53,652 nt of DNA, taken from contig CAYVCD010000002.1 of the NCBI GenBank assembly GCA_964450115.1, positions 1 to 53,652 of the forward strand, written 5' to 3'. The notes under the pieces were generated by a model. That model was not told the DNA's origin. It did not search any database and saw nothing but the letters and a program-made list of their open reading frames with translations. This document shows, piece after piece, positions 19,919 to 52,115 of this stretch. Position 1 is the stretch's first letter; the number at the start of each line of letters is the position of its first letter. The position numbers and the translations under genes are program-made. Source of the stretch: an uncultured Planctomycetia bacterium. GTDB taxonomy: Bacteria > Omnitrophota > Gorgyraeia > 2-01-FULL-45-10.

Positions 19919-19961
19919 ACCAGATAGCCTAGAACATGAAGCTTGGCAATCTGGTTTTTTT
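19919..19961 (+). terminator. intrinsic-terminator-like hairpin inside the ORF2 leader (possible attenuator)
   Basis: ACCAGAT-a-GCC (19919-19929) pairs with GGC-a-ATCTGGT (19945-19955), 15-nt loop, then a T7 run (19955-19961). An A-run sits upstream. It ends 30 nt before ATG 19991. Confidence 0.55.
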
Positions 19962-19990
19962 ATTTAACAATTGTTAAGAGAACAAATTAT

Positions 19991-25900: not shown

Positions 25901-26335
25901 AAGGTCGTGAAGATAGCTCCGGAGGACCTGCAATCTTTAAATGGCGGGAAAGATATAAATGTCGAATTCGCCGATGAGACAAAAGAGCTGGAGCTTCTCT
26001 TGAGGCACGTAAACTCTCGCTACCAAATAAATAACGGCATGCTCATGGGAGTCATTAAAGGCAGGACCGATGCTTTGTATGAATCCGGTATAAAGAACCT
26101 GGCCAAAGAAAAACATGTTCCTATAGTCTCCTTCGAGCATATAGAGTCCAACGATGTGGATAAGGAGATATACTCATTCAGAGAAGCCTTGTCGTTATTG
26201 ATCTCTATAACGAACGATACAACTCCCCTTAAAGACAGAGAGTGGTTTAAGCTGTTAAGGCCGATAGAAAAAGAAGATATCGATAGGATATATCAGGATT
26301 ACAGGCGTGCTCTAGAGGTGGCTATAAATGCGTAA
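19991..26335 (+). CDS. giant protein 2 (2,114 aa from ATG 19991), signal-peptide-like N-terminus, otherwise uncharacterised
   Basis: Uninterrupted frame. ATG 19991 gives MKLRFNKTYRIIAAMLLVAFLAQDISWA|YP. The track's TTG at 19943 lies inside the leader hairpin and is less likely. Only a HEAT-like repeat was recognised by eye (LLAALNDTNLQVRLAVISAMHKL, about 20521-20610). The stop overlaps the ORF3 start. Confidence 0.85.
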   Translation: MKLRFNKTYRIIAAMLLVAFLAQDISWAYPSQASNSNLAVPGLQNASVLSRLKKVLANKLFKKKGKSFNNSAIDTTIKKDPIPQNHLSANIVLPPDISAALKDIDEKNAKHIIDMIRRIYSHEKIGIMRQNHWLEYITGLLRDPRTQYKIVASKAAALIFEDSYHLDKMDEGSLRKAEEALLAALNDTNLQVRLAVISAMHKLVESRYDVRVYTLKQMAGRFDELIRKYHKVDATLEDAALRAMMALSSERDIELSSAYAVRAFDESLKAQAKTLGKNIRTFLKEERRSDFRMRGLSRVLDRCVADSGMGLTAYIRSVYFMKFIESLFSDEKTDIAKIKEYVLKLPRGSSNIDGRIIVYDPILKLADKELSEMYFTSGQDVRSLLSWRKDSEPVQAFDFYGEVFMTQSRVRFLEMADKGLVYYDANQKRFVTNPATFIDVASGETSMPDSDRITDGDALSMYIAELEAMECYIMSDAKSHEKNFLRPLFELLFNRLEKDFEGSEDFITYCRELIRRWPEGSYEIRKAMNDEEAILLEKFGKIKNSYATRNASIQLYGILLFYLTLKPQPYLGHLYDEYMKNSPPHNLSLYRTGISYHTRGDNVIYFFPKNLLFNGTNADALGKQRRGEAPFEDARKSENAAKILEAVKIWRRECPNLENRIKRFENNSTVSELIMKTSLIFSDPVHNVIRVVHAGRGRRLLFLPKNYLDSLRVDSEYDMKELAVWLNFAQRYLDIHDHMSGRKVAAHQVQKVLSELVRRSFEKEDTHLVEPEILKYRMSQLMKQDELIKYKDVLISLALEEAEVQVMEKISRPTKDELMILENAYGRIAHGYEVLGMKSRSERAYNGMADIITKIQSTDPWALPYELQVDLILTALRFGRWEDFINELKILLTGKGYPRDIRWTELSYIMKEIITPASMGPRSLESTIMRALAAQIAAADPRSAEVIKETADQANGMLSKYFKNPFGNLGMDDITGCPSPEALERLKKGEDNPNSLIDVENRLVRKVAGFESCTDIGRMDPYSISMTTRTANTLEGMGYILNEFRKPVGDAGISDAEVALINKSAVVVNMMDKNGHEQSCLLKILSREDPVEKAVENFLRNDLSVYEGLAKNNGCKNIILVLGKKHPSYPTNIIVPSERGEDILIVSYGSGEQPEHINAASAGDAVKKSGISDPDALEAFLKIQKEASLQSVYKAAEYFIGIGTPGAERLLKMAVTKKGHFQEEFLGEFIEARAVEDNIRYSRVIELGMERFGAEVDFVLEVDRSKYQSNTKGGFELEDGVYLGESKTSDKSNSLERVIEGAVSDKVERYLRVALNKRKSESGNPNAPLIKGIIFAIGGETVRSEGVVDFTITRLEEGDNLRSDGIGTFLALIPDTIVARGRDRLTFKERSFISDLLSDLKARGMLDSARISSLVPILKAALMEYGLSRTQFMISDAIKEAGADPYIGQTQNKEIWNSVFRALGARTGISLNMDFQSQKFLIDREASVNGRTDLEISYWQSGLSEFKNTRGRARCEFEIAGLPGRWVPLIDEHDQVVIAHISDSGSQKALNDYFVFRPDVTSKDLLIDKELERLALGSERLLYYARSGADPVPVRIPVTVSYDEKLTSNVLIGYIKAAIGGSRLLYYFGQQIMKSPARWEAWGLEPELGSAGAIKAVARPFGILGDKDEGSLVFDRHEKMARVSDIVVLDNKGKFGIVAEFGFHDMFQLYHKYANSFIFMAQHGSKISGQSSRLPQSVLLYADDIAIGGKKAARESQGISARKLILERLEQILDRASSSYQKEPNMLMPRTVYFMLGGALTADRPAYFKLPVIAQFRWHKKEGKYIPVKSGLKILEGEDNLEGLFQAAYSYIKRAEGLIPGPLAKPEATVAPSLEIPGSADILSAALVLGLRIADSVPGTANAIDDVVNSKALVLFADDILERGTAADLAYTLRESSTLNNSTIVLYGKRPGRAELLEKIISSSAQDKGIKVVKIAPEDLQSLNGGKDINVEFADETKELELLLRHVNSRYQINNGMLMGVIKGRTDALYESGIKNLAKEKHVPIVSFEHIESNDVDKEIYSFREALSLLISITNDTTPLKDREWFKLLRPIEKEDIDRIYQDYRRALEVAINA

Positions 26336-29300
26336 TAAATATTTAAGTTTAAAGCCCGGGCTAAATGGGTTGAGGGAAGCTTCCCCCCGAGTAGCGACTC
26401 TTATCCCAACCCGGGCTTTTCTAATGAAGATAATGGCAACGATCTTGATCGCGGCGTTCATCGCGCAGGATATCGCGTGGGCGAATCCCGAGATAGGCCA
26501 GGGTGTGCCTTCAAAGAGCTCGCTGCAGATACCGCTGATGTTGGGTCCGATGCGCGCCGGTGATGTCGGCATGCTTATGGAAGCGAAGGTCCAGCAGATA
26601 ATACGCTCGATACCGTTAGAGGAGCTTAAAGAGCGCAAATATAAATTGCCGATCGAAGAGAGGGGCATAAGATTTCAAATAACCTTCAGCGTAGATTCGA
26701 GCGAAAGGCTTGTGGCGAACTGCACGGCACCTGGAAAAAATCCGGTCAAACGAAAGTTTGTCATTAAAGACGACCTCACGTTCGCCACTGAGAACGAAGA
26801 GACGCCGAAAGAAGCATCATCGCTTCCGAAGTTCAGCGAAGCGCTTGCGAAGATGGATGCGCACATGAGGGAGAGCGCTTTTGAAAGGGCTAGGAGCGAT
26901 AACTATGAATATCATTTTGATGAAAATTCGCCTCAATTCCTGCTTCATGCCATCTTCATATATTTCGGAGACACTCCAGTCAATGACTTAAGCGCTATAG
27001 ATATATACCTGACCGTTATGGCCGGACAGAGTGACCAAAAGGTGAACCTTGCTCAGTCTTTTAATTTATTAAGGGGCATTATCCGCACCATACATAAGGA
27101 TGGCGAACTCTTACCTCCGCGTGAAACATTCAATAAAATGAGCCCTGAATCAATCAATGCCGTAATTGAAAAGATGCTCGCATTAAGAGAGAGCCATCTT
27201 AAGATCATCGATGAGTCGGAATCCAAATTTAAGGAGCTCATCCCTGACGTAGAATTTGCGTACGATTATCTGGACTATTTCAGAGGTCGTGTTGTCGAAT
27301 TTTATGATGAGCTCGCGGCAAGATACGCGGCGCTACTTGCGGCGAAGCACGCCAAAAAGGGGAAATCGGGCAAAAGCGAATATCTAGGCATGCTCGGAGC
27401 GGGGTTATTGCAAAAGCTATATGATAAGGTCGCCGATCACTTAATAACGCGATATGTAATTTATCTTCTCAGATGGCAGTTAAGCTCACCCTTGATAGCT
27501 CCTCTCGTAATATATTTTGGCGGGGGTTTTGCAGCTGTTGTATTGACCAATATAATAGGCGGTATTGTATTCTTCTGGCTCGATAAACTTATATTGAAGG
27601 AGCCGGGCAAATTATTCTCCGGCTGGAAAGATTTTGCCGGGGAATATCTTTTATATCTGGCAAGGTGGCAGCTGACTACTCCACTGATATGGATATTTAC
27701 ATATTATATGGGCACGGGCCTGTCATCAGCCATATATGCCAATATAATAGGTGGACTGATATTCTTCTGGGTCGATAGACGGATCTTGCGTCCTTCAGAG
27801 AGTTCGAAAAAGAGAGAAGACAGTCTACGAAGATCCGGCTCAGGATCTGTTCACGAACGCCATCTCTCCGATGTGCCGACCCCCGGAGCAGAGCCGATAT
27901 CCGATAGCCCCGCGGAATTGCTCAGGTACAAGCTCGACCAGGAAGCGCTGTGGAAGAGCGTGAATGATCCGCTTGCCGAAAGGAAGCGCGGCCCGCCTGA
28001 TAGGCGCGTCAATCTTGGCGGACCTGCAAAAAAATCTTCACATCCTACGATCACGCCGGTAATGCGCAAACGCGGTCAATTGATACGTAAGGTCAAGACA
28101 AGGCTGCATCTTTTAGGCCTAAGGCCTCTTGCTGTAAATGTTGTAGACGAGATCGCACGGATGGCGTCTAAGGACCCTTCCATAGAGAAGCTTAGTTTTT
28201 ATATGGTAATTAATGCCGCAAAAGCCAACCATATCAAATTGCAGTCCAGAACAATAGATAAGGACAAAAGGATTGCCGAGATAATAAGGCTGGCCAGAGT
28301 ATTTTACAGAGATAACGGGAGAAAGCCCACAGCCAGAGAGACTGTCGCCCTTATTAACAAAGAGGATCCTTACGCTGGCTGTACTTATTACAATTTTATG
28401 AAGTGGGTGGAAAAGAATGCTATAGCATACGATAAACTCGGGGTGTTTAAGCAGCATGCCGGATTGGGTGGTTTCGTGGACGAGGCCATTAAAAAGGCAA
28501 AAGAGATAGCCGGACAGACCGGTAGTAAAAAAATAAGACTGGCCGATCTGAGAGAAAAGCTTAAATTAAAACCGCCGGCGTTTGCAAACCGCGTAAGAAG
28601 TTTGAAAGAAAGTAGCGGTGTGGATTTATACGACGAGCTCAGTAAGGCCGGGTTCGAAATCATGCGAGGAGCATCCGCCAGCACGCCTCCGGCAAAGGAT
28701 GCAGGCAGGCCATCCACGCGTTCCGCTAAGCGTCCCGACAAAAATAAACCCCTGTATATTCCGATAGCGGTAGTCAAGACCCTGATCAGGCGTGCGCTTA
28801 GAAACGACGTCGTTCCCGATCAGTACCGCGCTACGATGTCAGCCGGCCCGAAAGGGCTTGACCGTCAGCGGGTAGAAAATTCTATAAAAGAATACGAAGC
28901 TCTTATGGATTTTAAGAGCGCAGATCACAGCCGGATAGATGCGGCAATAGATACCTTAAATGCGCTTAGCAGGATGGATTCTAAATATTATACATTGAGT
29001 TTATTGAGAAGAGCGGCCAGCGTTCTGGATTATGAAGATAAATATAGATTAAAGGCTATGAAGAACGCCGCGAGGCGACTATTCGGATCCATCCCTGATA
29101 ACCTCGTATTTATTTCCTCATCACCAGCAATTAACAGCAAGAAAAACGGCTCAGAGCCGGAAAGTGAAAAAATAATATCGGATCAGGTCGGGAGACTGAT
29201 CAATACCGCGGGCCAGTTCCCCAGGCTGACTGCGATCGGTGAGGTGAAATTGAGCGTCCTGTACGGGTTGGGTGACAAAAGTGCGGGAGATACGCTGGCG

Positions 29301-32300
29301 ACATCCAATTTACGTCTGGTGATCTCAATAGCTAAGAAACATAGAGGGCCGCGCCTTCAGTTCCAGGATCTTATACAGGAAGGGAATATAGGCTTATTAA
29401 CGGCTGTCAGCAGGTTCAAGCCTCAGAAAGGATACAAATTTTCCACATATGCGACATACTGGATCAGGCAGGCGATACAGAGATATGTTGAAGATAATAA
29501 GAATCATATAAGAATACCATCCTTTAGATATGACAGGGTGAATAAATTCCGCAAAATTTGTGAAAAAAAGCAGATAGATCCTTTTGATAAGAAAATGGAT
29601 CCGTCACAAATAGCTAAGGCGATCGGGTGGAAGGTGACCGAAGTAAAAAGAATGTTAGAAATATTATCGCTTATGTCAACAGCGTCTTTAGACTCTGCTC
29701 CCGATGGTAAAAATAAGCATGACATAGAATTTTCCTACGCAGCCAATACCGTTCAAAATGATCAAGGTCCTGGTATTCTTGAGCGGCAGGATGTGATCGA
29801 TGCCATTGTAAAGAATACTATAGAGCTGATAAGACAGAGGTCCAGGGAGAATAAAGAAAGAGATGCATCGGTATTTATATTGAGGATTCTCCCGGTCTTA
29901 TTGGGTACCGGCAAGAGCGTGCCGACCCTGAAAGAGATGAGCATGCGTTTTAAAATTTCGAAAGAGAGGGTTCGCCAGATTGTTAATAAATGCCAAACTG
30001 CTCTTGAGGATGCGTTGGCCTACATGGGCTTAAAAGTAGAAGATCTCGGTATGACCAAGAGACGTTCTGTAGCGAGCGACAAGGGTGAGCCGAAAGAATA
30101 TCACGGGCCGAGTGCCGGAAGAACGTCACCGATACGTTTACGCAGTCGCAATCTTCCCAGTGCTCCGGCTCGAGTGAAGCCGCGATTCAAAGGGTCGCCC
30201 TATGCCGTATTTCTTAATCTTAAAAAAGGTTCAGCATCGGTAGAGGAACTGCTCGGGATGATAAGCGGCGGAATAAAGAGCGCCCAGACGATAGAAGATG
30301 ACTTGAGAATATTACGCAGGGCCGGCGTAGTGGCTTCGTTAAGAGTAAAGTCGAGAGGCCCTGTCTTTAGAATATACGGGAAAATCGGTAAAACAAAGTT
30401 GGCAAGCATAGAATCGTTGCTGGAAGGATCTTACAGTCCGGGTAATATTACAAAAAATAGCCGCGGGACAGGCAGACAATTTGTAATAAGAAAATTACGC
30501 GAAATAGTCCTTTTTGATCCCGCAAGAACCGCCAGACAGTCGCCTGAGGAAATAGGCCGGGAAGCAAGAACGCTCCTGCTCAAGGAAAGCCTTGAGAGCC
30601 TCGAGGCCACTATCATGGCGTCTATGGTAGATGGCAAGGAAAGAACGGACCTTGTAAAGCTGATACGCGCTCGTATAAAAGGGGTCATTTCAGGACCATC
30701 TCCGGCCCGGGCCGAATGGGATGAAACAAGATGGACCGGTTCGGACACGCTCCCCAAGCGCCATTCGCTCGCCATACCCGGCGCGGAAGATGATATTATT
30801 AATACTTTTACGATAGGAAAGGGGCCGAGAAGATTAGCTGAGGGCGGAGCTATCCACTGTAATTATCTCTTCGCATACGATCCTGCGTCAAAGATAGGCG
30901 CTGCGGCGCATATCAGTTTAATAGATATGGACCCATTAAATGATAAAGATGTGGAGAGCGTTTCTAAAGGTATCAGAACTTTGGTAGAGACATTACAGCA
31001 TGCGGGAGCTAACGCGGCAGAACTGCGATTCACCATAGTGAGAAAAAAGGACGTCGCTCCTATCGAAGAGCTGTCTTTGCGGACCGAGGCTATGCTGGTC
31101 AATGCTTTTGGTAAGCTTGGGTTAATAAATTTTAATAGATCCCTAGTCGATAATGACTCGATGGTATTTTTGGATCTCGCAACCGGGGGCATATCACAAG
31201 AGGATAGGTCAGTAACCAATACCAAAATATCTGCTGATATTCTCAAGGCTATCGAATCGGATATCGCCGGTTTCGGATTGCGCACCTGTCTTGCCAAATC
31301 AGCGTTGCTTATATATATTTTGCGATCTTTAGGTGAAGAGGCAACGCTCATCGGCATGTTTCGCAAGGATGAAGACATGCCTTTTCAGTATTTGGTGCGT
31401 ACCGTTAGATGGGGGGACAGGGATATATCTCCTTTTGGTGGGGAGGCCGATGATTACGAGCGTACGGTCCCGGTACCTGAAACAGATTACGAAAGAGGCT
31501 TGTCATCTTTAAGAGAAGGAGGGTATCTTGCAAGAGCCGACCTGGAAATTTTAAACGCTTATAAAAAGGTGGTCCCAAATGCATTTGACATAGATGATGG
31601 CACGCTGATCTATGCTTTTGATTATGACGGAACTCTAGCGGATGCCACCGGACGCATGCAGGATGAAATTTCCGCGAGCTTGATCGCGCGCCTTAAGGCG
31701 GGTAAGAAGGTGGTTATGATAACAGGCAGGAACACCGCTTCACTGCATCATTATTTCTCATCCTATATACCTTTAGAGACACTTAAGCGGTACCATAAAA
31801 ATATTATATTTATGGCGGAATTGGGAACCGAAGTCGGGCGCTTCAACGAAGATGGAGAGCTATATGTAGACCGGAAGAACAGTATGCCTCTCGATAGCGC
31901 GAAAAAACGCCAAATAGACGCGGTCTGTTATGAGGTGCTCCAGAAGCGCGGGCTGCACAATATAGGTGGAATAAATACAAGGATACTCCCTCATACCAAT
32001 CCGGGAGAATATCCCAAAGGCAAATCTATTGAAATAGGTTTGGAAAAATACGGGACTGTCACCATCCGGTTCTGGGAAGAGTCTTTAATGCATCATATGC
32101 CCGGGGTCGTCGAGGACCTGAGGCAGGGGTTAGTAGATATCGGATTTTATGTTGCGGCATCAAATGCAGCTATAGATATATCACCGATCGACAAGGCCGA
32201 CGCTGTGAAGAAGCTATTATCGATTATTAAAGACGAAGATGGCGAAGATATACCGCTTTCGAGTGTAGCAGTGTGTGGTGATAGCCAAAACGATTACGCT

Positions 32301-35300
32301 ATGCTGGGTATGAGTGTTGTCAAAGCAATATATGTAGGAAATAAAGAAAAGAAGGACCTGCCTGCCGCCGTTGCGGCAAACGTGCATATTCCTGCGAAGC
32401 GCGGTCCGGACGGGGTATTGGAGATATTAAGGAGTGGGTCGTTCTCTGCGCCCACGCAGGGTGGCGAACCCGCCGCCATGTCGAAGCCGGAGCCGGAAGC
32501 GCAGATCGCGCGCGGCGTCAATACGACAAAATTGTCCGAAGAACTTGTTGCCGAACGGAAGTTGATCTACGATATCCATAGCCGATGGCCGGCGGCGGTC
32601 ACGGTATTCGGGAGCGCGAGGATCCCGGAGAGCGATCCGTCATTCGTTAAGGCAAAGGAGCTGGGAGTCGCATTATACCGGGCAGGCCTTTCGATAAGGA
32701 CAGGCGCCGGTCCGTCTATGATGGAAGCGCCTTTCATGGGCTATCTCGAAGAACGGGAAAGATCCGGCGCGGCCAAGGAGCTATGGAACACGACCCAGGG
32801 CATACGCATAGAAGGCCTGCAGATCGAGCAGCATACGACCAAGTTTGTTGAGGATAACTACAGCTTTGATCATTTTGTCACAAGAAAGATGGGCCTTTAT
32901 AATAACTGCCGCGGCATAGTGGTGTTTCCCGGGGGATTCGGAACGGTGGACGAACTTATTGAAGTATGGTTCAGGAAGATACCGATGGTATTGATCGGCA
33001 AGAGTTACTGGCAGCCTATCATAGACGCCATTTACCGAAGCTGGGCGGCAAAAGGATGGATGGAGTTGATCGAAGAGAAGCCGCTGATCACGGATTCGAT
33101 CGAAGAGGCAGTGGCTCATATCCGTTCGTCCAAAAAAGATCTTATGATAGAGTCAAGGGAAGATATGGAAGCGGCGAATGAGGATATAAGGTCCTCTCTT
33201 GTGACCCTCGAAACCTGGCAGCCGGCTGTTACCGTTATGGGTCAATCGGAGCTCTTAGATAATGTAGAAGCGGACGTGTTGACCGAGATGACGAAAGAAC
33301 TGCTCGCAAAAGGGATACCTGTGCGCTCGGCGACCGCGAACCATTACCTGAAAGTGACTCTGGAGAATGCCGCAGGGGACAAAAAAGATATGCTCCAGGC
33401 AGTACTGGCCGTTCCAAAGGAGAGCGCGCTAGTCCCGGGGCCGAATCGCATAGTTACCCATAATCTATCTAATCATCACGTTCTGGTAACCGAGAATTCG
33501 CGCGCTTTCGTCATTCTGCCCGGCCGCGCGAAGACACTCAGCCGTCTCTTTGACCTGGTAACGGTGATGCAGACAAAAAAAGTCAAGACCAGGCCCATCA
33601 TATTAGTAGGCAGTAAATTTTGGCAGCCGATAAAAGACGCGATCAAGGATGCGGCTCTCGAATATCCCTCAGGGCAGCTCATAAATCCGGAAGACGCTGA
33701 TTTGCTTCAAATAGTCGACACCGCCGAAGAAGCTCTTCGGATCATCAACATTGTAGATGCAGGTAGCATAGTTAGGGATGCGACCCGAATCGCGCGCCCT
33801 GGCGACATGCCGCCCGGCCCGAGAAATCCACGCGACAGATTCTTTAAACAGCCGCCGGATGAAGTATCGGAAGCGGCTACCAATAAGACGTATAAACCCG
33901 TGTCGCCTATCGGTGAAGACGATATTGTTACAGCGTTTAAGAAGGGATGGGAATACATCTGGATGCGCAGCACCAGAAAGGCAAAAGGCCGGTTCCTGCG
34001 GGAGGCCGCCAAAGCGCTGAAAAGAGAGCCGGGAGTATTAATAGTTAATGATTTAACATATGGGCTAAAGCGGATATGGGGGCACTCTGCGAGCGGGCTT
34101 ATAATATGGACAATGAAAAAATTCCGTATTAAGAATCCGACGGCTGCAATGAAGGCATTAAAGCGATATGTCGGTATAAAGGCAGTGCCGTGGACTAGAT
34201 ACGGGCAGCCTATCGGTGAAGACGATATTGTTACGGCGTTTAAGAAGAGATGGAAACACATCTGGGTGCGCAGCACCAGAAAGGCAAAAGGCCGGTTCCT
34301 GCGGGAGGCCGCCAAAGCGCTGAAAAAAGAGCCTGGAGCATTGACTGAACCCGATTTAAGGAATGGATTAAAGCGTGCATGGGGACGCTCTGCGAATGGG
34401 CTCACCAATTGGGCGAGAGAAGAATTTGATGTTCGGAGTTCAAAAGCGATTATGGAAGAATTGATGCGGTATGCCGGTATAGAACCAACGTCTCAGTCTA
34501 GACGTGTGATTGTAGAAGATATCACAGAAAAGACAATTTTACAGCATCTTAAGAAAAGGACCCGGAATATATGGTTAAGAAGCAACAGAGATGCCAAGAG
34601 AATGGCAGTCCTTTTACTTGCCAGAGAGCGGAACAAAGAGCCCAGAAAATTAAATGCGAAAGATTTTATTACTCCGATCCCATTATTTGGAAATCGTAGT
34701 ATAGGCGGAATTATACATTGGGCGCGCCACCACTTAGGTGTACAGGCGGGTGCTATGAGCAGTTATTTGCAAGCTATCCTTGACCTTAAAGAGTACCTTG
34801 GGATAGAAGATACTATTGTGCCGAAGAAGAGATGGGAAGCCAAGGTGGAGGCAGACTGGGGTGAGGTATGCGTCATACTGGATAAGTATGAGCATCTGAA
34901 AACCACGGAAGCAAATGTCCGCACGATCCTTAAAGGATGCCGTTTTAATAATAAGGAAACCGATCTGGCTATGGGACGGGAAGTTCAAAGAGGGAATCCA
35001 GCCGCTAGGGAAGCCATGATGATAGTTTATGAGACCGCCCTCGACTATCCGGCGGCAGGATTCAATAGAAGATATCCCGATATCAGTGTCGATGAATTCA
35101 AGTCCGCCGGCAGGATCGCTCTTGCCGGATGCGTTGAGCGCTATGATCCGGAAAGGGGTTTCGTATTCATAACGTTCATAGGCTACAGGAGCGACAGTAA
35201 GCGCGTCTTCGGACGCATCTCGGGTGCGATGGTCGATCTTGTCAGGAAAGTCCATGGCACCAGGCGAAAGGGGAAGGTGCGCGAAGTCCAGGGCGGAGCC

Positions 35301-44300: not shown

Positions 44301-47300
44301 AAAACAGCGAGGCATGGCGGAAAGATCCAACCTACCATGTGGCTTAACGGGTGGGACGGCCTTGTGCTATATATTTTTGAAGAACTCGGATTTATCGGGC
44401 TTAAGGAATGGATAAAATGGTTAAAACAGGCATTTATGAGCGGAGATTTTATGGCCGCGGATGATATTATTATGAGGCTCGAGGCCATTTTTAGCAGATC
44501 GGCGGATAGTCTCGACAGAGAAGAGGCTGCCGTAGATGCGATAAGAAGAGAGATGTCGCAGATAAGGCTAGGAGAGGCTACAAGATTAGACGATTTGTTC
44601 GAGAAGTCAAACGATCCCAGGAAAGCTATCCCTGGCCACATAAAGAGATTGCAGCATTATATTTCCGCCGCGCAATTATCGCTTTCAAATAGGCGTACAA
44701 CGCCCGAACAGTGCGGCCGGCTCCTGGACAAAGCTGGATACAATCGCAAAATTCTGGCGCGATTGGAAGAGAAGGTCAAGACGCTGGAAGAGATCAGAAA
44801 AGAAATTATCGCCAGGTTCGGCGGAGAAGTAAAGAGCGAAAATATTTGGAACCCGAATCATACTGCTATCCTCATAGGGCAAAGACGCACCCTTCAGAAC
44901 CTGAAGAAACAACTGCCTGCAGTGGTGCGTGGCTTAAGGAAAATGGCCAAGGGGCTACCTGAGCCTGTTTATAAGAGGTCCGAAAGAGAAATTCTAGGTA
45001 TTAGCTATCTGCGAAGCAGGGCATTGCTGACGAGGCTATTGTCCAGGCTTCCTCCTGGTGTGCCTGCCAGATCGGATACTCTTGCCGCTGTAACAATAGG
45101 AGACAGGGAAGAAGTCAGTCCGGGCATGGTCGCAGAAGCTATAAAGATGTGCGGCGGCATACCGGGCATAAATAACGATGTTCTGGCAAGAGGTGTCTCG
45201 ACGCAGGTGGCCATTACTTTTGAACGCGCCAGATTGTTCCAGAAGCGCCTTGAGGAGTGGAATCCCGAGGATCATGAATTCGTAACAGACCCGGAGATAA
45301 GGGACCTCGAGGCGACGATAAATGAACTGGAGAGGCACTTCATGCCATATTTTACGAGGTCTATAAAAGTTCTAGAGTCGAGGCAAAAGGGCGCGTTTAA
45401 TGAAAGAATAGATATTTTAAAAAAGCAAAGAAGAGAAGCATCGAAGTTTATCCCTGACTTAAAACGCTTGCTCGCCCTGCAAGCCGGAGATGCGCAGCTG
45501 CCGGCAAATTCGCTTGCCCAGCAAGCAGCCATGACAAGAAATAGTCCGTCCGTAAATAATACGGCCATCCCTAGGAGCGCTGAGCGAATAATCGCAGATA
45601 TTAATACGCGTATCGAGAATATTGTCGAGGATGACGATCTCGGAAATATGGCCAAAGAGATGCTGCAGCTGCACTTATTAGCAGAAGTAAAAACAATCGT
45701 CGATATGCTTGATAATTTGAAGCCGTTTGATCAAGATGGCAGGTTGCAAGAAGGCCTGTTATCCAGGCTTGCCACTGCAGTTCGCGATCGCGGCTTCGAT
45801 CCTGTCGAATTTTTAACTTCAGAGGACAAAATGACTCCCGCAGACAGGAAAATACTGGCCGCCATAGGCTACTTAAAAGAAAAGAGAGCCCGCATATCCC
45901 AAAAAGCCATAGCCCGCAGAGCGGGCCTTAATGAAAATACCATAACAAGGCGCATGAGAGCCAATCCTAAAATAGATAAAGCTGTAAAAGAATTGCTGCC
46001 AGGCTCTGTCGATAAAAGGATATTAGATGCCATAGATAGATTACTTAAAAGGGGCGGCCGTATAATCAAAAAAACTATAGCCCTTGAAGCAGGCCTCGAC
46101 AGGTACACCATAACTAAACGCATGAAGATCAGTCCTAAAATAGATAGAGCTATAAAAGACGCATTGCTGGCTTCTATATATAGAATAATACGAGACGCCA
46201 TAGGCCACTTAAAGATTAAAAATGTCCCCATAAACAAAGAAGCGATAGCCCTTGAAGCAAAACTCGGTGTGAGTTATATGGCTAAACTTATGAAATCCAA
46301 TCCTGAAATAGATAAGGCTGTAAATGATGCGTTACCGGATTCCACAGATGATAAAATACTGGCCGCCATAGGCTACTTAAAAGAAAGAAGAGTTCAAGTA
46401 TCCCAAAACGCCATAGCCCGCAGAGCTGGCCTTAACAATAAAACCATAGCAAAACGCATGAGAGCCAATCCGAAAATAGATAAAGCTGTAACAGAGGTAT
46501 TACCTGATTCTACCGATGAGAAAATACTGGCTGCTATAGACCGTTTGAGAGAAAATGGGATCCCGCTTACCAGAATATCTGTATCGCAAAAGTCAGGTAT
46601 TAGTAAGACTACCATATCATACCGCACCAAGGCCAACGTTGAGATAGGGCAAGCACTCTTTGAAGCGAGACATCCTGACGCAAAGTCGCAGCAAGCCGCG
46701 CCTGCCACATCAGGCGGCGCAGAGAGGCCGGCAGGTGATTCGCACTACATGATGTTGCTGCCACCGGAGCCCGGCAGTCTGGAAGAGGCGCTCGATTGGG
46801 TTCTGAAACGCGAGCCAGCGGGAATCGGCCTTCCGTCAAGACATAGTCTAAGATTCCGCCAGAGCGATGATGTGGGCGAGCCGAATGACGATGGGGTGTC
46901 CCAGAATGGAACGTCCCCGAAGGCAAGTGTTCTCCGGAAAGTAGCGAAAATGCGCACTCTGACCGAAAGATTGATCGCATTGCGGGAAGAGAAAAAATTG
47001 AGTACGGCAGAATTGGCAAACAGATCCGGCATATCGGAGCAGGCCATAAAAAAGATAGAGGCAGGCAAAGTGCGCTGGAATATTAGTATAGCATTCATCG
47101 AAAAGCTTGCGGACGGCTTGGGGGTAGAGGCAGATATTCTGGATTTAAGGGGGATATCGCCCATACCAAAGAAGATTCTTAAGAAGGCAAGGAAATTGCC
47201 GACAGTTGGAGAACGCATACGATTGTTACGAGAGTACAAAGGCTGGAGTTTACAATACCTTGCAAAAGTGTCGGGCATATCAAAGATGTATATCTTTATC

Positions 47301-50300
47301 GTAGAAAAAAACAAACGAGACACGAAACCGTCGCGTGACATTCTCAGAAAACTTGCCAGGGCTCTGTGTGTAAGCGTTAAGGTTCTGGAAGCAGGAAGCC
47401 AAAGACGAAAGAAACTGACCAAAAAGTTTATCGCTGAAGTTAAAACGATGCCTACCATAGGGAATAGGTTGAGGGCATTAAGAGAATATATGGGTTGGAG
47501 CATATCGGAACTTTCGCGCAGGACAGCCGCGGCCGATAAGCGAGCTATACACCCATCCTATATATGGGCTATTGAGAAGGGCAAGGCGAAGATCGGTTCG
47601 GTTCCACGTCCGAAAACACTTAATAGACTCGCCCATGCTTTTGGATTAAGCGCGACGATATTCAAAATAAATAAGCTCAAAAGCATTCCTTCGGAGACGC
47701 TGAAAAATATAAGAGCCCTTCCTACGAGAGGGGCACGGCTTAAAGCCGCAAGGCATTATATGGAATTGACCCAGGAAGCCTTGGCTAAAAAAGCGGGCTT
47801 TAATAGAACCACTGTGCAGCGTGTTGAAAAGGATGATGGAGAGAGTAAAACGCCGGCACATACTATTGAAAGCCTTGCCCGGGCCTTAAATATTGATGCG
47901 GAGGTACTCGCGGGGCCCAAGATAATGCCCGCCCATATAATAGCGAAAGTAATGGCGGAATATCCCACAAGGGGCGGCCGCATGAAAGCATTCAGGAAGT
48001 ATAGAAGGTATTCTCAGGACGACACAGCTGCTAAGACGGGTATTGCGCCATTTACATATAAGAAAATAGAGAACGATCTTGTACCAATACCTCGCGGCAT
48101 GACAATTGTGAGGATCGCGTTCGCCGTAGGGATATACCGCAATGTATTTAATGTATTCCCGGGCGAGGCGTCGCAGCCGTCCGTTTCGAAGAATACAAAA
48201 GCCGACTTGATGAAATATGAGTTTGCTACAGCTAATGAGGAGGATATAGCAGATGTAAGAAGACGGCTTATCACTAAATTGTTGGATTCGTCAAGCGAAA
48301 GACTTGCCAAAAGCACGATATGCGCGATGATGCAGGATGCCGGTGATGTAGAGATAACGCCGGCCGATGTGATGCAGGCCATGGAAGAAGATTCCTATCT
48401 TACTTCGCATAAGAACTTTTCTGGCAACGGTAACGGGAATGGATCAGCTGATCCGGCGGCATTGGCTATGACTAATACTTTAATAAGCGCGGAGTCTCAT
48501 ATAGAGAGGGCCGCAAAGGAACTCCGGGAGCGTAAGTATATTCTTGCAAAGAGGGAATATGAGCAAGCTCTTTTACTTGTCCGAACGGAAAAACAGCTCG
48601 TAGTAAAGGCCGCGCAGATGATCGAACGGGCGTCCAAAGGCATGGCTGACTGCGAAGAAGCCGTATCTCGTTTCGTAAGGATGAGATTTGTCGATGAAAA
48701 AGAAGCGATACGGAAGATGCAATTTATTCTGGACCAGATGGTTGAGGTAACAAGAGACCGTATCAGGCAGGAATCGAATGAGGCCACGGAACCGGAATAT
48801 TATGAGAGAATAACGTCCGATCTCATGCGTTATAGTGGCTCCTTGATGACGGAGATGTTCAAGGACACGTCTGCTGTGGAGAGAAGGCTATTTGCCGCAT
48901 CTATCGATAACATAAGAAACGAAATACAATCATATATAGTGGCTATTATCAGAGGGTTAAAAGAGGAACAGACGGGGAGTTATTTACGGCCCGCGCCGCC
49001 AGCCACCGGCCCGGCCGGGGAGCGGTCTACAGCCGATCCGCACTACAAGACATTGCCCGCACCGGAGCCCGGTAGTCCGGAAGAGGCGTACCAACGCCAG
49101 GTGAATCTGCCGGGGATCGGTACGCCGTCAAGGCATAGCTTAAGATTCCGTCAGAGCGATGAGAATATGGGCAAGCCGAAGACGCCAACCGTCGCGCAGG
49201 GCGCTGAATCCGCCGATTTTAGAAAATATTTCAACAAGGTGGTTGAAACGATCTGGCAGGCGGATCCGGCAGAGAGAGAGGCGGCAGCCGTTTATTTCCA
49301 GAAACTTGCCTCGACCTCAAATAAGGCAAGGGAAGAGATCTTTGCCGGGCTCAGGGCGAGACTGAATTTCCAGGACCCCTCTGAAAAAGCAAAAGCAGAA
49401 AATATGGCTATCTTTTATATTGTTTCCCAAATATCCCCCGGTGGGAAAAAAGGCATCAGAAATGCCATGATCAAAGCCAAGATGAAGTTTTTAACTGAAG
49501 CTCTCCCTCTGGCGGGAAGGGAGTTTTTTGAAATGCTTCCGGATGTGCTGGTATTTAAGCCTGAATCTAACGTTGATGAGCAGATGGAAAATCTGGGGAA
49601 TATGGATGGCATTACCTCCGCTAGTTTGAAGCACCATTTACTTACGCCACTTGGCGAAATAAAATTCGGAGTTCTAAGGGGGTATGAAGGATTGAGCGAT
49701 ATGGCAATAGACAATCTTGTAAAAAATAACCAGCGGCTTAGCCTTAGCAGGGCAATGATCTTTTATTATATGGATGATTGCGTCATTCCGCTGAATGAGT
49801 TAATGGCGTGGTGTAATAAAGTCCTGGTGCATGCGGCGAAAAAATGGGACCCTTGCCGCGGAATACGGTTTTCCACTTATGCGTACGAAGCCATTAACAG
49901 GACAACATCAAGGCTCCGTAGAAAAGAAAAAGATAGGAGAGAGAAGGAGGTTGTTCTATCGGATGATGTTTGGGGAGTTCCTGACTATTGGCCGACAGAC
50001 GTCGCTCAGGAAGTCGAGGATTTCGAAGAGATAACCTTACTGCGTCAAGCTTTGGCGGCCTTGCCGGAAACAGAAAGAACTATAATGGAGTGGTATTACG
50101 GGATCAACCTGCCTGCGGATCTTTCGGTAAAAGGCGGCGGCGGAATGACCATCGAACAGATCGGCGAGCGTTTGGGATTGACCTACGCGCAGGTAAAGAA
50201 GCGCAGGACGGTCGTTGAAAAAGGGTTAAAGGAACTCTTCGAACGCAAACCCCGGCCGCAGCAACTGGTTTGGTTAGATAAAAGATTTGTGGATAAGAAT

Positions 50301-51566
50301 AATATTACGGCGCCAGCAGAAACAGCCGAGTCAGATTTAAAAGCACCGCTAAAGATAAGCCTGCCATATGAGCAAATGAAGTATAAATCTATCGGTGCGG
50401 ATAGCCAGGTTTACCGATGGCAGCACGACGGCGAGGATAGGGTGATCAAGGTTTACGGACAGGCAACTCCCGAGCAGATCCGTACCTACCAGGACGTAAC
50501 TTTGCTGGCAAAAAATATTATGGAAAAAGAGACTAGTGATACGGTAAAGATACGCGGCAAAGAATACGCCGTAATTTACGAGGTTGTCCCTATTGACAAT
50601 ATATTTATCGATCAGAAAGGCGTAACCGTAGGAGAGAGCCGTTTTGTGGATGGCCGGTCTCTTATGTGGCTTCGAGACACTGATGCCAGTACGGCGATAA
50701 CAGAATTACTGAAGAAGAGGAATAAAGAGTTTTTCAGGCAAACGGGATGGGGCGGGGTCGTCTTGTTTCAGTCGTGCAATGTTATGATAGATATTTCGCC
50801 TCAAGAGAAGAAGGTGCGGCTGGCCATTACCGATGTATGCCCATCGATAAGCGCATTATCCAATGTCAAGGTAACGACGGCTCCGGAAGGCGGGAGCCTT
50901 TCAGTTGAGCCGGAGCAGTTCTTGCGGAATATTGTTAATACAAAAGAGCTTTCGCAAAACATGATAGAGGGAATACTCTCGGCGCTCTTCTCTAATAAAG
51001 AAGTTACATTTGCTTTCAATAAGAAGCTCAAGGGATTAGAATCGGCTCAGTTAAGGGCATTGGTAAGACAGTTGATCGCCTGGAAGGATGCGACAGGCCA
51101 GAAGAATCCCAGGATGAAGGCATTGCTGGCCAGATTCAATGTTTTCGAATACAACGATCTTAAAAAAGAGCTCGATAGCCGTGGCATAGATGTGAATGCC
51201 GGAAACGGCCTGATATTCGATTATGCTCCAAAACCACAGGACGGATCGGCAAATGCATTCGGTTCCGCGGTGAGGCCGGTCTATATAGTTGAAGAGGGCG
51301 ATTCGTTCCCCGAGAACTACTATTATCCATTACTGGAGATGGTGACTATCTCTGTCGCGAAAGAATTACTGCAGTGGAATGAGAGAGAGCTACGTGAAGC
51401 TCTTGCCGCTTCAAATATCACCGCGGACACATTCGGCATAGATGCGGCTATCGATGAGAAGCTCGGCATCCTCATATTCAAAGTCCTGCCCAAGATGGAG
51501 CGGTACGATAACGGTGATAGAATTGACCGCTACACCCGCCTCCTGCAATTCCTGCATTCAGCTTAA
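26328..51566 (+). CDS. giant multidomain protein 3 (8,412 aa): concatenated sigma factors, HTH arrays and small-molecule enzymes
   Basis: Uninterrupted 25,239-nt frame. GAGGTG Shine-Dalgarno at 26315-26320, 7 nt before ATG 26328, which overlaps the ORF2 stop (ATGCGTAA). The alternative ATG 26424 gives [22 protein letters not shown]. Domain motifs are listed as separate features. Confidence 0.9.
   Translation: [8412 protein letters not shown]
27444..27795 (+). other. duplicated transmembrane hairpin (2 x 66 aa, about four TM helices) in ORF3
   Basis: [49 protein letters not shown] and [49 protein letters not shown], period 198 nt. The layout resembles small 4-TM GtrA-like proteins, but this is unverified. 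Confidence 0.6.
29211..30030 (+). other. complete sigma-70 family module #1 (regions 2-4, RpoD/RpoS-like) embedded in ORF3
   Basis: [62 protein letters not shown] (regions 2.1-2.4), [15 protein letters not shown] (region 3-like), [28 protein letters not shown] (region 4.2 HTH). Confidence 0.88.
31606..32430 (+). other. HAD-IIB (Cof / sugar-phosphate phosphatase-like) domain #1 in ORF3
   Basis: Motif I FDYDGTL, motif II [8 protein letters not shown], motif [13 protein letters not shown]. Confidence 0.8.
32562..33135 (+). other. LOG-family (TIGR00730 / 'lysine decarboxylase-like' nucleotide hydrolase) domain in ORF3
   Basis: [14 protein letters not shown] ... [10 protein letters not shown] ... 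[17 protein letters not shown] (PGGxGTxxE motif at about 32928-32955). Confidence 0.8.
33215..33755 (+). other. second, degenerate LOG-like domain in ORF3
   Basis: Same layout as the preceding domain (AVTVMGQSE ... [20 protein letters not shown] ... [15 protein letters not shown]), but the PGGxGTxxE motif is replaced by PGRAKTLSR. Confidence 0.55.
33789..33863 (+). repeat. junction repeat A, copy 1 ([25 protein letters not shown])
   Basis: 75 nt, 73/75 identical to 35634-35708 and in the same reading frame. Confidence 0.95.
33906..34810 (+). repeat. three tandem ~101-aa coding repeats (period 303 nt)
   Basis: Copies starting at 33906 and 34209 share a ~130-nt near-identical stretch ([35 protein letters not shown].EPG). 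The third copy (from about 34501) is divergent ([34 protein letters not shown]...). Confidence 0.85.
34971..35597 (+). other. sigma-70-like module #2 (divergent region 2 + region 4 HTH) in ORF3
   Basis: [33 protein letters not shown] parallels [32 protein letters not shown] of module #1. Region 4-like [42 protein letters not shown]. Confidence 0.6.
35634..35708 (+). repeat. junction repeat A, copy 2 ([25 protein letters not shown])
   Basis: 73/75 identical to 33789-33863. Together the two copies bracket the 3x101-aa repeat + sigma #2 block. Confidence 0.95.
35847..36955 (+). other. PLP-dependent fold-type II enzyme domain (threonine/serine dehydratase-like) in ORF3
   Basis: [39 protein letters not shown] (PLP-lysine motif SFKIRG at 35935-35952), [16 protein letters not shown], Gly-rich loop [15 protein letters not shown]. 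Confidence 0.8.
37041..37634 (+). other. HAD-IA-type phosphatase domain in ORF3
   Basis: Motif I [9 protein letters not shown], motif [10 protein letters not shown], motif III [10 protein letters not shown], motif [14 protein letters not shown]. Confidence 0.75.
37926..38960 (+). other. glycosyltransferase family 9 (heptosyltransferase-like) domain in ORF3
   Basis: [40 protein letters not shown] (N-terminal GT9 pattern) and [27 protein letters not shown] (C-terminal D(S/T)G..HLAAA.G.P motif). Confidence 0.78.
39513..40470 (+). other. aminoglycoside/choline-kinase-like (APH family) phosphotransferase domain in ORF3
   Basis: [23 protein letters not shown] (nucleotide-binding lobe), catalytic [10 protein letters not shown] (from 40116) and FIDLETSG metal-binding motif. 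Confidence 0.78.
40732..41310 (+). other. Pol-beta-superfamily nucleotidyltransferase domain in ORF3
   Basis: [25 protein letters not shown] (GS ... DxD motif, 40808-40900). Confidence 0.7.
41505..42300 (+). other. HAD-IIB-like phosphatase domain #2 in ORF3
   Basis: [14 protein letters not shown] (same DYDGTL motif I as domain #1), VAIITARN motif II, [14 protein letters not shown] as a divergent motif IV. Confidence 0.65.
42606..43195 (+). other. class I SAM-dependent methyltransferase domain in ORF3
   Basis: [13 protein letters not shown] (motif I-like), VVVTDIL (acidic post-I), [28 protein letters not shown]. Confidence 0.7.
43377..43502 (+). repeat. junction repeat B, copy 1 ([42 protein letters not shown])
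   Basis: 126 nt. A 64-nt core (GCACCGGAGCCCGGTAGTCCGGAAGAGGCGTACCAACGCCAGGTGAATCTGCCGGGGATCGGT) is identical in copy 3 (49035-49160). Confidence 0.95.
45849..46688 (+). repeat. five tandem 168-nt (56-aa) coding repeats, HTH-like units
   Basis: Unit [12 protein letters not shown]..(I/V)SQ.[26 protein letters not shown].S.D. Unit starts AAAATACTG recur at 45849, 46353 and 46521 (multiples of 168). Units 1 and 4 are the most similar at DNA level. Confidence 0.85.
46737..46868 (+). repeat. junction repeat B, copy 2 (divergent: [44 protein letters not shown])
   Basis: Same frame and same flanking logic as copies 1 and 3. PEPGS.EEA and [12 protein letters not shown] are conserved; the middle differs and has two extra codons. 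Confidence 0.85.
46953..48160 (+). repeat. array of five XRE/Cro-type HTH domains in tandem within ORF3
   Basis: Five units of the form (I/V/R)G.R(L/I/M)..(L/A)R.....(S/T)...LA...G(I/F).......(I/V)E.....: [95 protein letters not shown]..., [72 protein letters not shown]. Confidence 0.8.
49035..49160 (+). repeat. junction repeat B, copy 3 ([42 protein letters not shown])
   Basis: Near-identical to copy 1 at nucleotide level (64-nt perfect core, a few substitutions outside it). Confidence 0.95.
49681..50250 (+). other. sigma-70-like module #3 (region 2 + region 4) in ORF3
   Basis: [32 protein letters not shown] (region 2 pattern FD...G..FSTYA) and [15 protein letters not shown]...[32 protein letters not shown] (region 4). 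Confidence 0.68.
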
Positions 51567-52115
51567 GCGCGCCTCGTGAAGTTTTGTGTATGTGGGGCCT
51601 TTTGGAGAGAGCTTGCTTTCGAATAGAACGACAGAAACGACGGAATGGGATTTAGTGATCGGCAACTGACAGTTGCCGATCTTTTCTTTTAGGACTTCTT
51701 TATTCTTCGGTGAGCGGACTCTGCCTATGGTTAAGTGTGGCGCGAATGGCCGAGGCTCCTTCTGAAATCCGATCTTCAATAGCTCTTCAACAATATTTTC
51801 CGCAAATGCTTTAGATTCAGCTGTACCCTTATCCAGTCCGACCCAGATCACTCTGGGATAATTGATATTAGGGAAGGCCCCGATATCTTTTATAGAGATC
51901 TCAAATGGTTTGGTCGAGCCGGATATTGCATCTAGTATTGATCTTATTTTGGCGCATTTTTCTTCAGTTATATCGCCCAGGAACTTCAATGTAAGATGGA
52001 TATTGCCCGTCTCGATCCACTTAACATCGGCTTCGGAATATTTTAAATGAGATTGTATCTGGGAGAGAGAGTCATTGATCTCGGGGGAGAGCTCTATTGC
52101 TATGAATGCGCGCAT
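51558..52115 (-). CDS. thpR: RNA 2',3'-cyclic phosphodiesterase (2H family, LigT/ThpR)
   Basis: MRAFIAIEL start and two H-x-T-x motifs (HLTLKFLG, HLTIGRV). The 3' end overlaps the ORF3 3' end by 9 nt (convergent). Confidence 0.85.
   Translation of the reverse strand: MRAFIAIELSPEINDSLSQIQSHLKYSEADVKWIETGNIHLTLKFLGDITEEKCAKIRSILDAISGSTKPFEISIKDIGAFPNINYPRVIWVGLDKGTAESKAFAENIVEELLKIGFQKEPRPFAPHLTIGRVRSPKNKEVLKEKIGNCQLPITKSHSVVSVVLFESKLSPKGPTYTKLHEARLS

Follow-up and report, generated by a model that had tools for sequence, protein, structure and literature searches.

Why a bacterium would join cytoplasmic-type enzymes, sigma factors and DNA-binding domains in one polypeptide is the question raised by a 53,652-nucleotide (nt) stretch of Omnitrophota DNA (contig CAYVCD010000002.1 of assembly GCA_964450115.1; here, the window). 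On its + strand, at 26328-51566, lies an open reading frame (ORF) of 8,412 codons, the product of which we call the giant. Giant ORFs are a hallmark of this phylum. That the ORF is one real gene of an uncultured Omnitrophota bacterium is well supported, as is a family build in which a Sec-type signal, a head of ~100 amino acids (aa), interchangeable cargo and a tail of ~225 aa occupy a fixed chromosomal locus. Our tentative reading, to which we give a probability of about 45%, is that the giant is an exported, host-directed multi-effector carrier.

Bacterial proteins longer than 5,000 aa are mainly nonribosomal peptide synthetases and polyketide synthases (NRPS/PKS) and surface adhesins (PMC11573180). 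An earlier annotation, made by a model from the letters of the window (here, the first-pass annotation), considered the make-up of the giant unusual. Unusual it is beside those proteins, but it has precedent in the Omnitrophota, where giant membrane-associated proteins are tiled with methyltransferase, HAD, GNAT, kinase and glycolytic-enzyme domains (bioRxiv 10.1101/2023.11.21.568195; bioRxiv 10.64898/2026.06.07.730766). Giant ORFs are common in the phylum, and the peptides of one giant were up three-fold in host-attached cells (PMC10066038). Moreover, giants that combine a signal peptide and transmembrane (TM) helices with enzyme Pfam domains have been interpreted as exported (bioRxiv 10.64898/2026.06.07.730766).

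The first-pass annotation reported a stop-free frame of 25,239 nt, and our ORF listing confirmed it; the longest ORF in any other frame of the interval is 252 aa. At 47% G+C, about 5% of random codons are stops, and we calculate that so long a series of codons would escape a stop by chance with a probability of roughly 10^-190. Base composition and skews stay uniform across the interval. Repeat-mediated misassembly is unlikely because the repeats inside the DNA are short and have diverged (no more than 164 nt at 86% identity, and 75 nt at 97%). When one genome per species was scanned, a Candidatus Omnitrophota metagenome-assembled genome from Lac Pavin (L001) came up in which the order rodZ-miaB-pgsA-pgpA-[1,954-aa ORF]-giant is that of the window, at 79-95% protein identity, and in which the contig stops 1,446 codons into the giant. 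Nei-Gojobori estimates against L001 over 1,433 aligned codons of the giant gave ratios of nonsynonymous to synonymous divergence (omega) of 0.10-0.42, and omega was <0.45 wherever measurable. The ratio was 0.10 in the TM hairpin region (synonymous divergence, dS, 0.23), 0.4 in the first sigma module (dS 0.5-0.6), and 0.10-0.39 in the other aligned parts (dS 0.05-0.30); the flanking housekeeping genes gave 0.03-0.17 (dS 0.35-0.54). We conclude that the aligned parts of the giant are under purifying selection. Comparative support from all relatives covers the head, the TM region, aa 830-1641, a LOG pair and the tail.

Translation most likely begins not with the maximal ORF (26328-51566) but at M33, at 26424, to give a predicted protein of 8,380 aa, because codons 1 to 32 overlie a conserved intergenic hairpin (see below) and because a stop closes that stretch in L001. 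There, the frame of the giant is closed just upstream of an ATG at 9989, from which the protein begins MNTRIIKTIAVILLAAFIAQDIAWANP ('MNTRIIKTIAV…').

Fixed ends and a same-locus size series

How the giant begins argues for secretion. The n/h/c-region layout and the A-x-A rule, a heuristic, turn the signal- or anchor-like N-terminus of the first-pass annotation into a predicted Sec-type signal peptide (26424-26483, +; MKIMATILIAAFIAQDIAWA, cut before NP) with a basic n-region, an h-region of ~12 residues, and A-W-A before N. An n-h-c signal ending in A/S-x-A is present in the giant, in its family, and in the products of the two other large ORFs of the window, p2130 and p2898. The signal end AF[LI]AQDIxWA, followed by NP, is unusually conserved across the family and is kept in both of those ORFs. 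Next comes a family-specific head domain of ~100 aa (26556-26792, +), one helix and a five-stranded sheet, that is common to the N-termini of P0004, P0005, P0007, P0091 and P0111 and that AlphaFold2 (AF2) models at a predicted local distance difference test score (pLDDT) of ~93. The all-alpha 'domain X' that follows (26832-27440, +; YGxEF…TFERA…FLLxAIxIYxGDTPxNDL…YYRxRVxEFFxEL) was delimited from HMMER relatives and is modeled at pLDDT 85-96. Many proteins of 1,400-5,300 aa have this domain as well, and in several of them hydrophobic, TM-like stretches follow it by eye. The joint model of head and domain X has a pLDDT of 80.5; Foldseek against the PDB gave a best E of 0.075, which is not significant, and a profile search of PDB sequences was empty.

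Two tandem TM hairpins (27444-27797, +), four helices in all, come from a hydropathy scan and from self-comparison, which shows a duplicated unit at aa 376-424 and 440-488. They are 100% conserved in L001, and a linker that follows them is common to the giant and a 6,042-aa protein. Over 100 small membrane proteins (55-240 aa), among them P0002, P0003, P0008 and P0017, are homologues of the hairpin unit. The small proteins consist of one or two such units (…RWQLxxPL…NxIGGxxFFWxD[RK]…), they match no Pfam family, and some of them (P0003, P0017) end in a four-Cys zinc ribbon.

At the other end, the C-terminal domain noticed in the first-pass annotation proved to be a conserved alpha/beta tail of ~225 aa (50883-51563, +; ending …DRYTRLLQFLHSA) common to P0004, P0007, P0111 and five JGI fragments. 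In the giant and in the three named proteins it closes with DRYT[KR]LLQFL[RH]SA. Its AF2 model has a pLDDT of 72 and a predicted template modeling score (pTM) of 0.77; Foldseek against the PDB gave a best E of 0.06, not significant, and a profile search of PDB sequences was again empty. Homology of the two tail types, A2 and A3, is weakly supported (probability 66%). One JGI tail fragment, P0155, is named 'DNA-directed RNA polymerase specialized sigma54-like protein' by a source, and the name finds no support here. That p2130 and p2898 might also carry the family tail was considered and dropped, at an hhalign probability of 0.2%.

The relatives were not easily found. Word-indexed protein searches with aa 1-5000 and with aa 33-560 returned none, and another such search returned only the five short JGI tail fragments. 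A metagenome scan with the C-terminal 5,000 aa returned nothing, and one with the N-terminal alignment returned only an unrelated LOG-like match. It took an exhaustive run of HMMER, with aa 33-560 as query and 1.84 billion representatives as targets, to bring up relatives; its 242 matches split the N-terminal region into four parts. The search for syntenic homologues that the first-pass annotation proposed was fruitful, as the loci of L001, P0004 and P0007 have the same neighborhood. The 45-kb contig that holds P0004 (3,141 aa; 10001-19426 of L004) reads ftsK-rodZ-miaB-pgsA-pgpA-[1,902-aa ORF]-P0004-ligT-cinA-recA, and its housekeeping proteins are 50-82% identical to those of the window. With the giant, P0004 has in common only the head (43% identity), the two LOG modules (52%, the sole cargo common to the two proteins) and the tail (64%); its other cargo comprises three methyltransferases, a GNAT and HATPase_c domains. 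P0007 (598 aa) is a head and a tail with ~250 aa between them and adjoins ligT, and P0111 (2,941 aa) has the same ends around PPDK_N and TPR cargo. Judging by synteny and similarity, P0004, P0007 and P0111 are probably also Omnitrophota proteins. Thus, at one locus, total length runs fourteen-fold, from 598 through 3,141 to 8,412 aa, and cargo from ~250 through 2,800 to 7,900 aa.

Cargo modules and linker motifs

What fills the space between the ends was assessed by scanning the translation against Pfam, in two halves and then in ten overlapping 1,000-aa pieces (E <= 0.1), and against NCBIfam. As cargo, the giant carries some dozen enzyme modules, along with three that resemble sigma factors and ten or more of DNA-binding type. 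No fewer than 12 distinct families tile it, the most repeated being helix-turn-helix (HTH; 10 units) and HAD (3), and none is dominant by copy number. Nearly all of the modules that the first-pass annotation had named by eye were recovered by hidden Markov models (HMMs); those that passed curated cut-offs or had strong E-values were sigma 1, both HAD-IIB modules, LOG, PALP, HAD-IA, GT9, APH, the methyltransferase, HTH, XRE and sigma 3. Moreover, self-comparison agreed with its duplicated TM hairpins, LOG duplication, 101-aa repeats, five 56-aa units and XRE array.

Sigma module 1 (29208-30047, +) is a complete sigma-70 module, regions 1.2 to 4.2, of the group 1/2-like kind. Sigma70_r2 matches aa 990-1058 at 70-74 bits and the sigma-70 superfamily matches at 83 bits; regions 2, 3 and 4 occur in order, with DLIQEGNIGL, YATYWIRQAI and KERVRQIV visible. 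The module aligns to solved SigA, RpoD and RpoS chains (E 7e-33) and covers SigA residues 117-373 of 390. RpoD_Cterm scores 150 bits against an equivalog cut-off of 354, so we take the module to be a member of the family and not RpoD itself. Nor is it the housekeeping sigma factor, because it is only 65% identical to its L001 copy, in genomes whose MiaB proteins are 87% identical. That divergence, together with the absence of the module from P0004 and P0007, marks the cargo as accessory. Sigma-like module 2 (34905-35612, +) kept a partial footing: TIGR02937 matches at 32 bits and Sigma70_r4 at E 0.002, but both fall below curated cut-offs. Sigma module 3 (49218-50282, +), with regions 2 and 4, scores 51.6 bits with TIGR02937, against a cut-off of 42.9. 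DNA binding is further predicted for five 56-aa winged-HTH-like units of the HTH_24 type at 168-nt spacing (45828-46682, +; HMMs and self-comparison) and for five XRE-type HTH units (46908-48197, +; HTH_31, five stretches, 145 bits). Sigma and HTH cargo was detected by phmmer in none of 17 large relatives, and its recurrence in the family therefore cannot be asserted.

The enzymes, all on the + strand, lie mostly between the first sigma module and the HTH arrays. HAD-IIB #1 (31593-32447; Hydrolase_3 / S6PP) is followed by a LOG module with a degenerate LOG copy (32529-33767; Lysine_decarbox, 96 bits in two stretches; self-comparison) and, past three repeats of ~101 aa without an assigned function (33885-34877; self-comparison) and sigma-like module 2, by a pyridoxal phosphate (PLP) fold-type II enzyme that resembles Ser/Thr dehydratases or racemases and has the SFKIRG lysine (35805-36947; PALP, 97-99 bits). 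Next are a HAD-IA phosphatase (37020-37637; 78-80 bits; best named match, glucose-1-phosphatase YihX), a heptosyltransferase-like GT9 glycosyltransferase (37845-38972; 35-37 bits), and an APH/CotS-like small-molecule kinase with HxDxxxxN and D-L-E motifs (39498-40487; APH, 27 bits; CotS family, E 1e-7). A Pol-beta-type nucleotidyltransferase (40665-41447) shows the signature G-S-x-G...D-x-D on which it was first named, but its HMM match is weak (E 0.014-0.019). HAD-IIB #2 (41490-42317; Hydrolase_3, 24 bits) and a class I S-adenosylmethionine (SAM) methyltransferase (42345-43202; 27-29 bits) complete the series. Catalytic motifs appear intact by eye in HAD-IIB #1, HAD-IA (YihX-type DLGNV), LOG1, PALP, APH and the nucleotidyltransferase. 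Beyond the methyltransferase, the long featureless stretch of the first-pass annotation persists as ~760 aa (43548-45827, +) that match no family, PDB entry or relative. Its kinase-like remnant near the C-terminus (about 50376-50850), by contrast, was matched by no HMM. NRPS/PKS, Ig, cadherin and RTX families, which it had not seen by eye either, and peptidase families, of which it saw no processing member, are absent from the giant at E <= 0.1. A CheD-type Cys/His hydrolase, a possible protease, was suspected by eye at aa 1480-1650 and rejected, since phmmer found no match to it in relatives and Pfam none at all. Membership of the giant in a defense system was likewise set aside, as PADLOC gave only generic matches of the sigma (MzaA), HTH and methyltransferase types.

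How cargo comes and goes can be read from L001, which lacks two stretches of the giant, both in frame. One corresponds to aa about 567-840 (28026-28847, +), part of which resembles the C-terminus of P0091, and the other to aa 1642-2047 (31251-32468, +), which holds all of HAD-IIB #1. In the remainder, dS spans 0.05-0.62, and in some segments it is 0.05-0.13, well under the neighboring housekeeping genes. Because dS forms such a mosaic, with several segments less diverged than housekeeping genes, recent exchange between lineages by recombination is indicated. The G+C content of third codon positions (GC3) also differs between modules, from 0.38 to 0.61. It is well supported that recombination between lineages adds, removes and exchanges cargo modules at this locus, in frame and at a fast pace.

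Linkers rich in Pro and in charged residues connect the modules, and short motifs recur in them. Motif B (RIARPGDMPPGPRNPRDRFFKQ) has two copies (33789-33863 and 35634-35708, +) at 97% nucleotide identity. Motif J, of ~45 aa (…DPxYKTLxAPEPGSPEE…PSRHSLRFRQSDD), has three by self-comparison (43341-43504, about 46734-46874 and 48999-49162, +), and within PSRHSLRFRQSDDV the second differs from the first by synonymous changes only. Relatives have motifs of their own: KPFAPDMAK occurs seven times in P0004 with varied (synonymous) codons and unrelated flanks, and RSE[VMIA]R occurs 18 times in P0039. Since their peptide sequence is retained where codons have changed synonymously, we conclude that such motifs are selected as peptides. 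The KPFAPDMAK copies at aa 1569 and 2008 of P0004 flank LOG1+LOG2, as judged against the Pfam stretches. P0005 is 88% identical to P0004 for 1,028 aa and similarity is lost right after one such motif, so that at least once an exchange breakpoint falls at a motif. The linker motifs are candidate cleavage sites, docking sites or both. Not every module junction of the giant has a recognizable motif. An RH[SRL][LPS] core was observed six times against 0.43 expected, and as the pattern was picked after seeing the data, it is a lead only.

Where the cargo may act

How might such a chain work? In the carrier reading, the signal peptide would send the chain through the Sec system, and the two TM hairpins would stitch it to the membrane without changing its side. 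The chain would then present or deliver its accessory modules to the cell on which the host-dependent bacterium lives. What is delivered would be small-molecule-modifying enzymes, sigma-like factors and HTH DNA binders, of which the sigma and XRE modules may act on the transcription machinery of a bacterial host, and the linker motifs would be points at which modules are separated by cleavage, or points of recognition. By counting, the bulk of the protein is predicted to lie outside because a Sec signal precedes the head and the number of TM helices (four) is even. We favor this carrier because it agrees with the published signal-plus-TM giants and with the enrichment of a giant protein in host-attached cells. 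Moreover, the fixed ends, the same-locus size series, the in-frame turnover of modules and the linker motifs move the weight from a fixed multi-enzyme pathway to a modular carrier of cargo. A bolder version, in which head, tail and linker motifs form an export-and-release platform that delivers sigma factors and XRE arrays into a bacterial host, where they are cut and take over transcription, seems to us unlikely. If it were true, the giant would be a cellular, MARTX-like counterpart of phage transcription take-over and its owner the first bacterium found to inject sigma factors into another.

Several observations weigh against export, and they bring into view a tether at the membrane's cytoplasmic face, which the conflicting evidence on topology makes a serious rival. 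Lys/Arg-rich stretches lie on both sides of the TM hairpins, and because these flanks are basic, as the positive-inside rule expects of cytoplasmic segments, and because small homologues bear C-terminal zinc ribbons that point to cytoplasmic termini, the flanks, and hence the 7,900-aa bulk, would be cytoplasmic. The cargo enzymes depend on ATP, SAM, PLP or nucleotide sugars, and the sigma and HTH modules on DNA and RNA polymerase, all of which only a cytoplasm provides; every cargo module is of a cytoplasmic type. Since sigma and DNA-binding modules have no conceivable role outside a cytoplasm, either the cargo is delivered into another cell or the predicted topology is wrong. Furthermore, the giant has no peptidase domain to release its parts (at E <= 0.1), and one shared protease cannot explain the linker motifs because they differ between family members. 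For aa 2500-8185, the open frame and the domain matches carry the case, and no type II secretion system (T2SS), pilus, glycoside hydrolase or mobile-element genes flank the giant in the window, unlike published giants. In the tether reading, the N-terminal hydrophobic helix and the hairpins would fasten the chain to the inner membrane and leave its soluble modules in the cytoplasm of the producer, which we consider doubtful. The protein would then be a membrane-bound hub that co-localizes accessory enzymes and keeps sigma and HTH modules, and through them DNA or RNA polymerase, close to the membrane in an ultra-small cell; this is to our minds similarly doubtful, though the product of the neighboring rodZ, itself an XRE-HTH membrane tether, speaks in its favor. 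Against a tether, the N-terminus resembles a cleavable Sec signal, which would place the next domain outside, an even number of TM helices follows it, and the same signal is borne by P0007, p2130 and p2898, which have no TM helices. Cargo turnover from 250 to 7,900 aa at one locus and loss of modules at the strain level would also be unusual for a housekeeping scaffold.

Could the producer use the parts itself? In favor of an 'operon in one frame,' a chain severed at the linker motifs to give the producer free-standing enzymes, alternative sigma factors and repressors, recurrent motifs are preserved as protein sequence, some of them between mapped modules, here and in relatives. Sigma module 1, being a complete sigma-70, could work once freed, and West-Roberts et al. 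have suggested that Omnitrophota giants are processed by proteolysis into smaller products (bioRxiv 10.1101/2023.11.21.568195). No protease domain was found in the giant or the window, however, the motifs of same-locus proteins differ such that each would need its own protease specificity, some junctions have no recognizable motif, and a cytoplasmic precursor needs neither a signal peptide nor TM hairpins. We regard such self-use as improbable. That the ORF is not a functional single gene at all, either an assembly chimera or a decaying pile of captured fragments still open by chance, is scarcely credible. Modules do differ in composition, LOG2, sigma module 2 and the C-proximal kinase-like stretch are degenerate, and word-indexed searches were nearly empty. 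Yet a frame of this length cannot stay open without selection, the low omega values speak of constraint, both ends and the flanks recur in independent assemblies, the shortness and divergence of internal repeats make a misjoin unlikely, and internal promoter-like and terminator-like sites show no excess. The polyprotein, scaffold and delivered effector array that the first-pass annotation offered as alternatives all stay live, and an exported carrier is our preferred reading.

How the giant compares with described proteins bears on its novelty. The closest described kind is the 'multi-enzyme metabolic cluster' of long proteins, class 1 of Nielsen & Lui 2026. The giant resembles them in its phylum, in its many Pfam families of which none dominates, in combining a signal with TM helices, and in an architecture that persists though sequences are poorly conserved; its content, with that of its relatives (methyltransferase, HAD, GNAT, HATPase_c), overlaps with their 'module 1.' Unlike them, it has 8,412 aa at most, under their 10,000-aa cut-off, and four TM helices against their mean of 22; its flanks are housekeeping genes where theirs are secretion/pilus, glycoside hydrolase family 2 (GH2) or transposase genes, and a same-locus size series and linker motifs are not described for theirs. 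The Archaeovorins (bioRxiv 10.1101/2023.11.21.568195) are also membrane-associated giants of Omnitrophota, some with cytoplasmic-type enzymes predicted outside the membrane, and the aldolase and phosphofructokinase of p2898 echo their glycolytic content. The giant differs in having no SecA DEAD-like, HEAT, GT5/GT1 or C39/S8 peptidase domain (none at E <= 0.1), in TM segments confined to the signal and one four-helix block instead of being numerous along the chain, and in the absence from the window of an upstream locus like those of T2SS or type IV pili and of downstream pilZ genes. The type Archaeovorin, at 39,678 aa, is several-fold longer. Sigma factors, HTH domains and a shared head and tail are mentioned in the text of neither the 2023 nor the 2026 preprint, and the fixed head and tail, the sigma- and HTH-rich cargo and the linker motifs are new relative to described Omnitrophota giants.

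Outside the phylum, MARTX toxins have conserved ends and a modular effector center (PMC5218395), and the giant is like them in its fixed ends, its strain-variable modular middle and possible release between modules (PMC5218395, PMC6731672, PMC6315884), which we take as analogy and not homology. It has neither the glycine-rich RTX repeat regions of the two MARTX ends (RTX and haemolysin-type families gave no match) nor the internal InsP6-activated cysteine protease domain of MARTX, its signal is an N-terminal Sec signal and theirs a C-terminal type I signal, and its cargo is made of bacterial-type enzymes and transcription factors, not eukaryote-directed effectors. Polyvalent proteins of phages and conjugative elements (Iyer et al. 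2017, PMC5512222) also join two to 15 unrelated enzymatic and binding domains per chain, shuffle them rapidly, and have been proposed to be delivered into another cell in conflict. The giant, unlike them, lies at a stable chromosomal housekeeping locus conserved in three other assemblies and not on a mobile element, is much longer, and has a head and tail of its own. With viral-type polyproteins it shares one long ORF with short motifs recurring between functional units, but no protease has been identified for it, its motifs vary between relatives, and it is a cellular gene with a signal and TM hairpins. From NRPS/PKS megasynthases it is set apart by the absence of condensation, adenylation, ketosynthase, acyltransferase and carrier domains in our scans.

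Why the locus matters is that published catalogues cover the domain content of proteins of >10,000 aa that are too divergent to compare, whereas here a tractable series shows how such proteins grow, by in-frame addition of modules between fixed ends. It also yields testable objects, namely, a 20-aa signal, a 100-aa head and a 225-aa tail without a fold match in the PDB, and candidate cleavage or docking motifs. Finally, it sharpens the known paradox of cytoplasmic-type modules after a secretion signal, here a complete sigma factor and more than 10 DNA-binding units.

Neighboring genes and transcription signals

The window comes from a part of an Omnitrophota chromosome given to housekeeping: truB, ribF, rpsO, pnp, dut, uppP, ftsK, rodZ, miaB, pgsA and pgpA lie upstream of the giant, and ligT, cinA and an ORF6N gene lie downstream. 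An exact-sequence look-up of the PNPase encoded here found no record of it. Among these genes are the two other large ORFs with giant-like signals. p2898 (2,898 aa; 1779-10475, +), between ribF and rpsO/pnp, consists of a Sec-type signal, 1,700 aa without a known family, a class I fructose-bisphosphate aldolase and then a phosphofructokinase, and these glycolytic enzymes, encoded after a secretion signal, are as paradoxical as the cargo of the giant. p2130 (2,130 aa; 19943-26335, +), immediately upstream of the giant, likely starts at M17 (19991) with a signal, …LLVAFLAQDISWA cut before YP, like that of the giant. It matches no Pfam family and has orthologues in L001, L004 and L005, a large ORF being present at its position in 3/3 related loci. 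The first 1,165 aa of p2130 are 91% identical to L001, with dS near zero in places and below that of flanking housekeeping genes, the C-terminal third is replaced (29% identity), and only aa 470-985 can be aligned to L004 (36%).

The hairpin that bears on the start of the giant is a GC-rich element (GCCCGGGCUAAAUGGG…CCCAACCCGGGC; 26349-26422, +) inside codons 1 to 32 of the maximal ORF, with folding z-scores of -3.4 and -3.7. Some 65 nt long, it lies between the upstream ORF of ~2,000 aa and the giant and is nearly base-for-base conserved in four assemblies (counterparts at 9844-9906 of L001, 9845-9906 of L004 and 1329-1390 of L005), the proteins of which are only 50-90% identical. Compensatory changes were sought across these assemblies and none was seen, and Rfam has no match for the element, which may serve as an attenuator, a site of RNA processing or a DNA site.

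How the giant is transcribed is suggested by a sigma-70-type promoter-like site in the gap after pgpA (19779-19806, +; TTGCCT, 16 nt, TG-TATAAT), which by consensus match only (10/12 positions, with an extended -10) is a candidate promoter of a two-gene unit of p2130 and the giant. Within the giant itself there is no convincing excess of promoter-like or terminator-like sites, and scans of the window for tRNA and Rfam families found no tRNA and no Rfam family. A hairpin scan placed an intrinsic-terminator-like hairpin of 11 pairs and a T run 90 nt past the stop of the giant (51657-51681, +), a position that falls within the coding region of ligT. The ligT ORF (51558-52115, -) overlaps the final 9 nt of the giant, and the called genes overlap likewise in L004 and L005. 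At the right edge of the window, the ORF6N gene (52775-53284, +) contains on the opposite strand a 12-pair hairpin with a T run (52967-52993, -), and its position is occupied by recA in L004.

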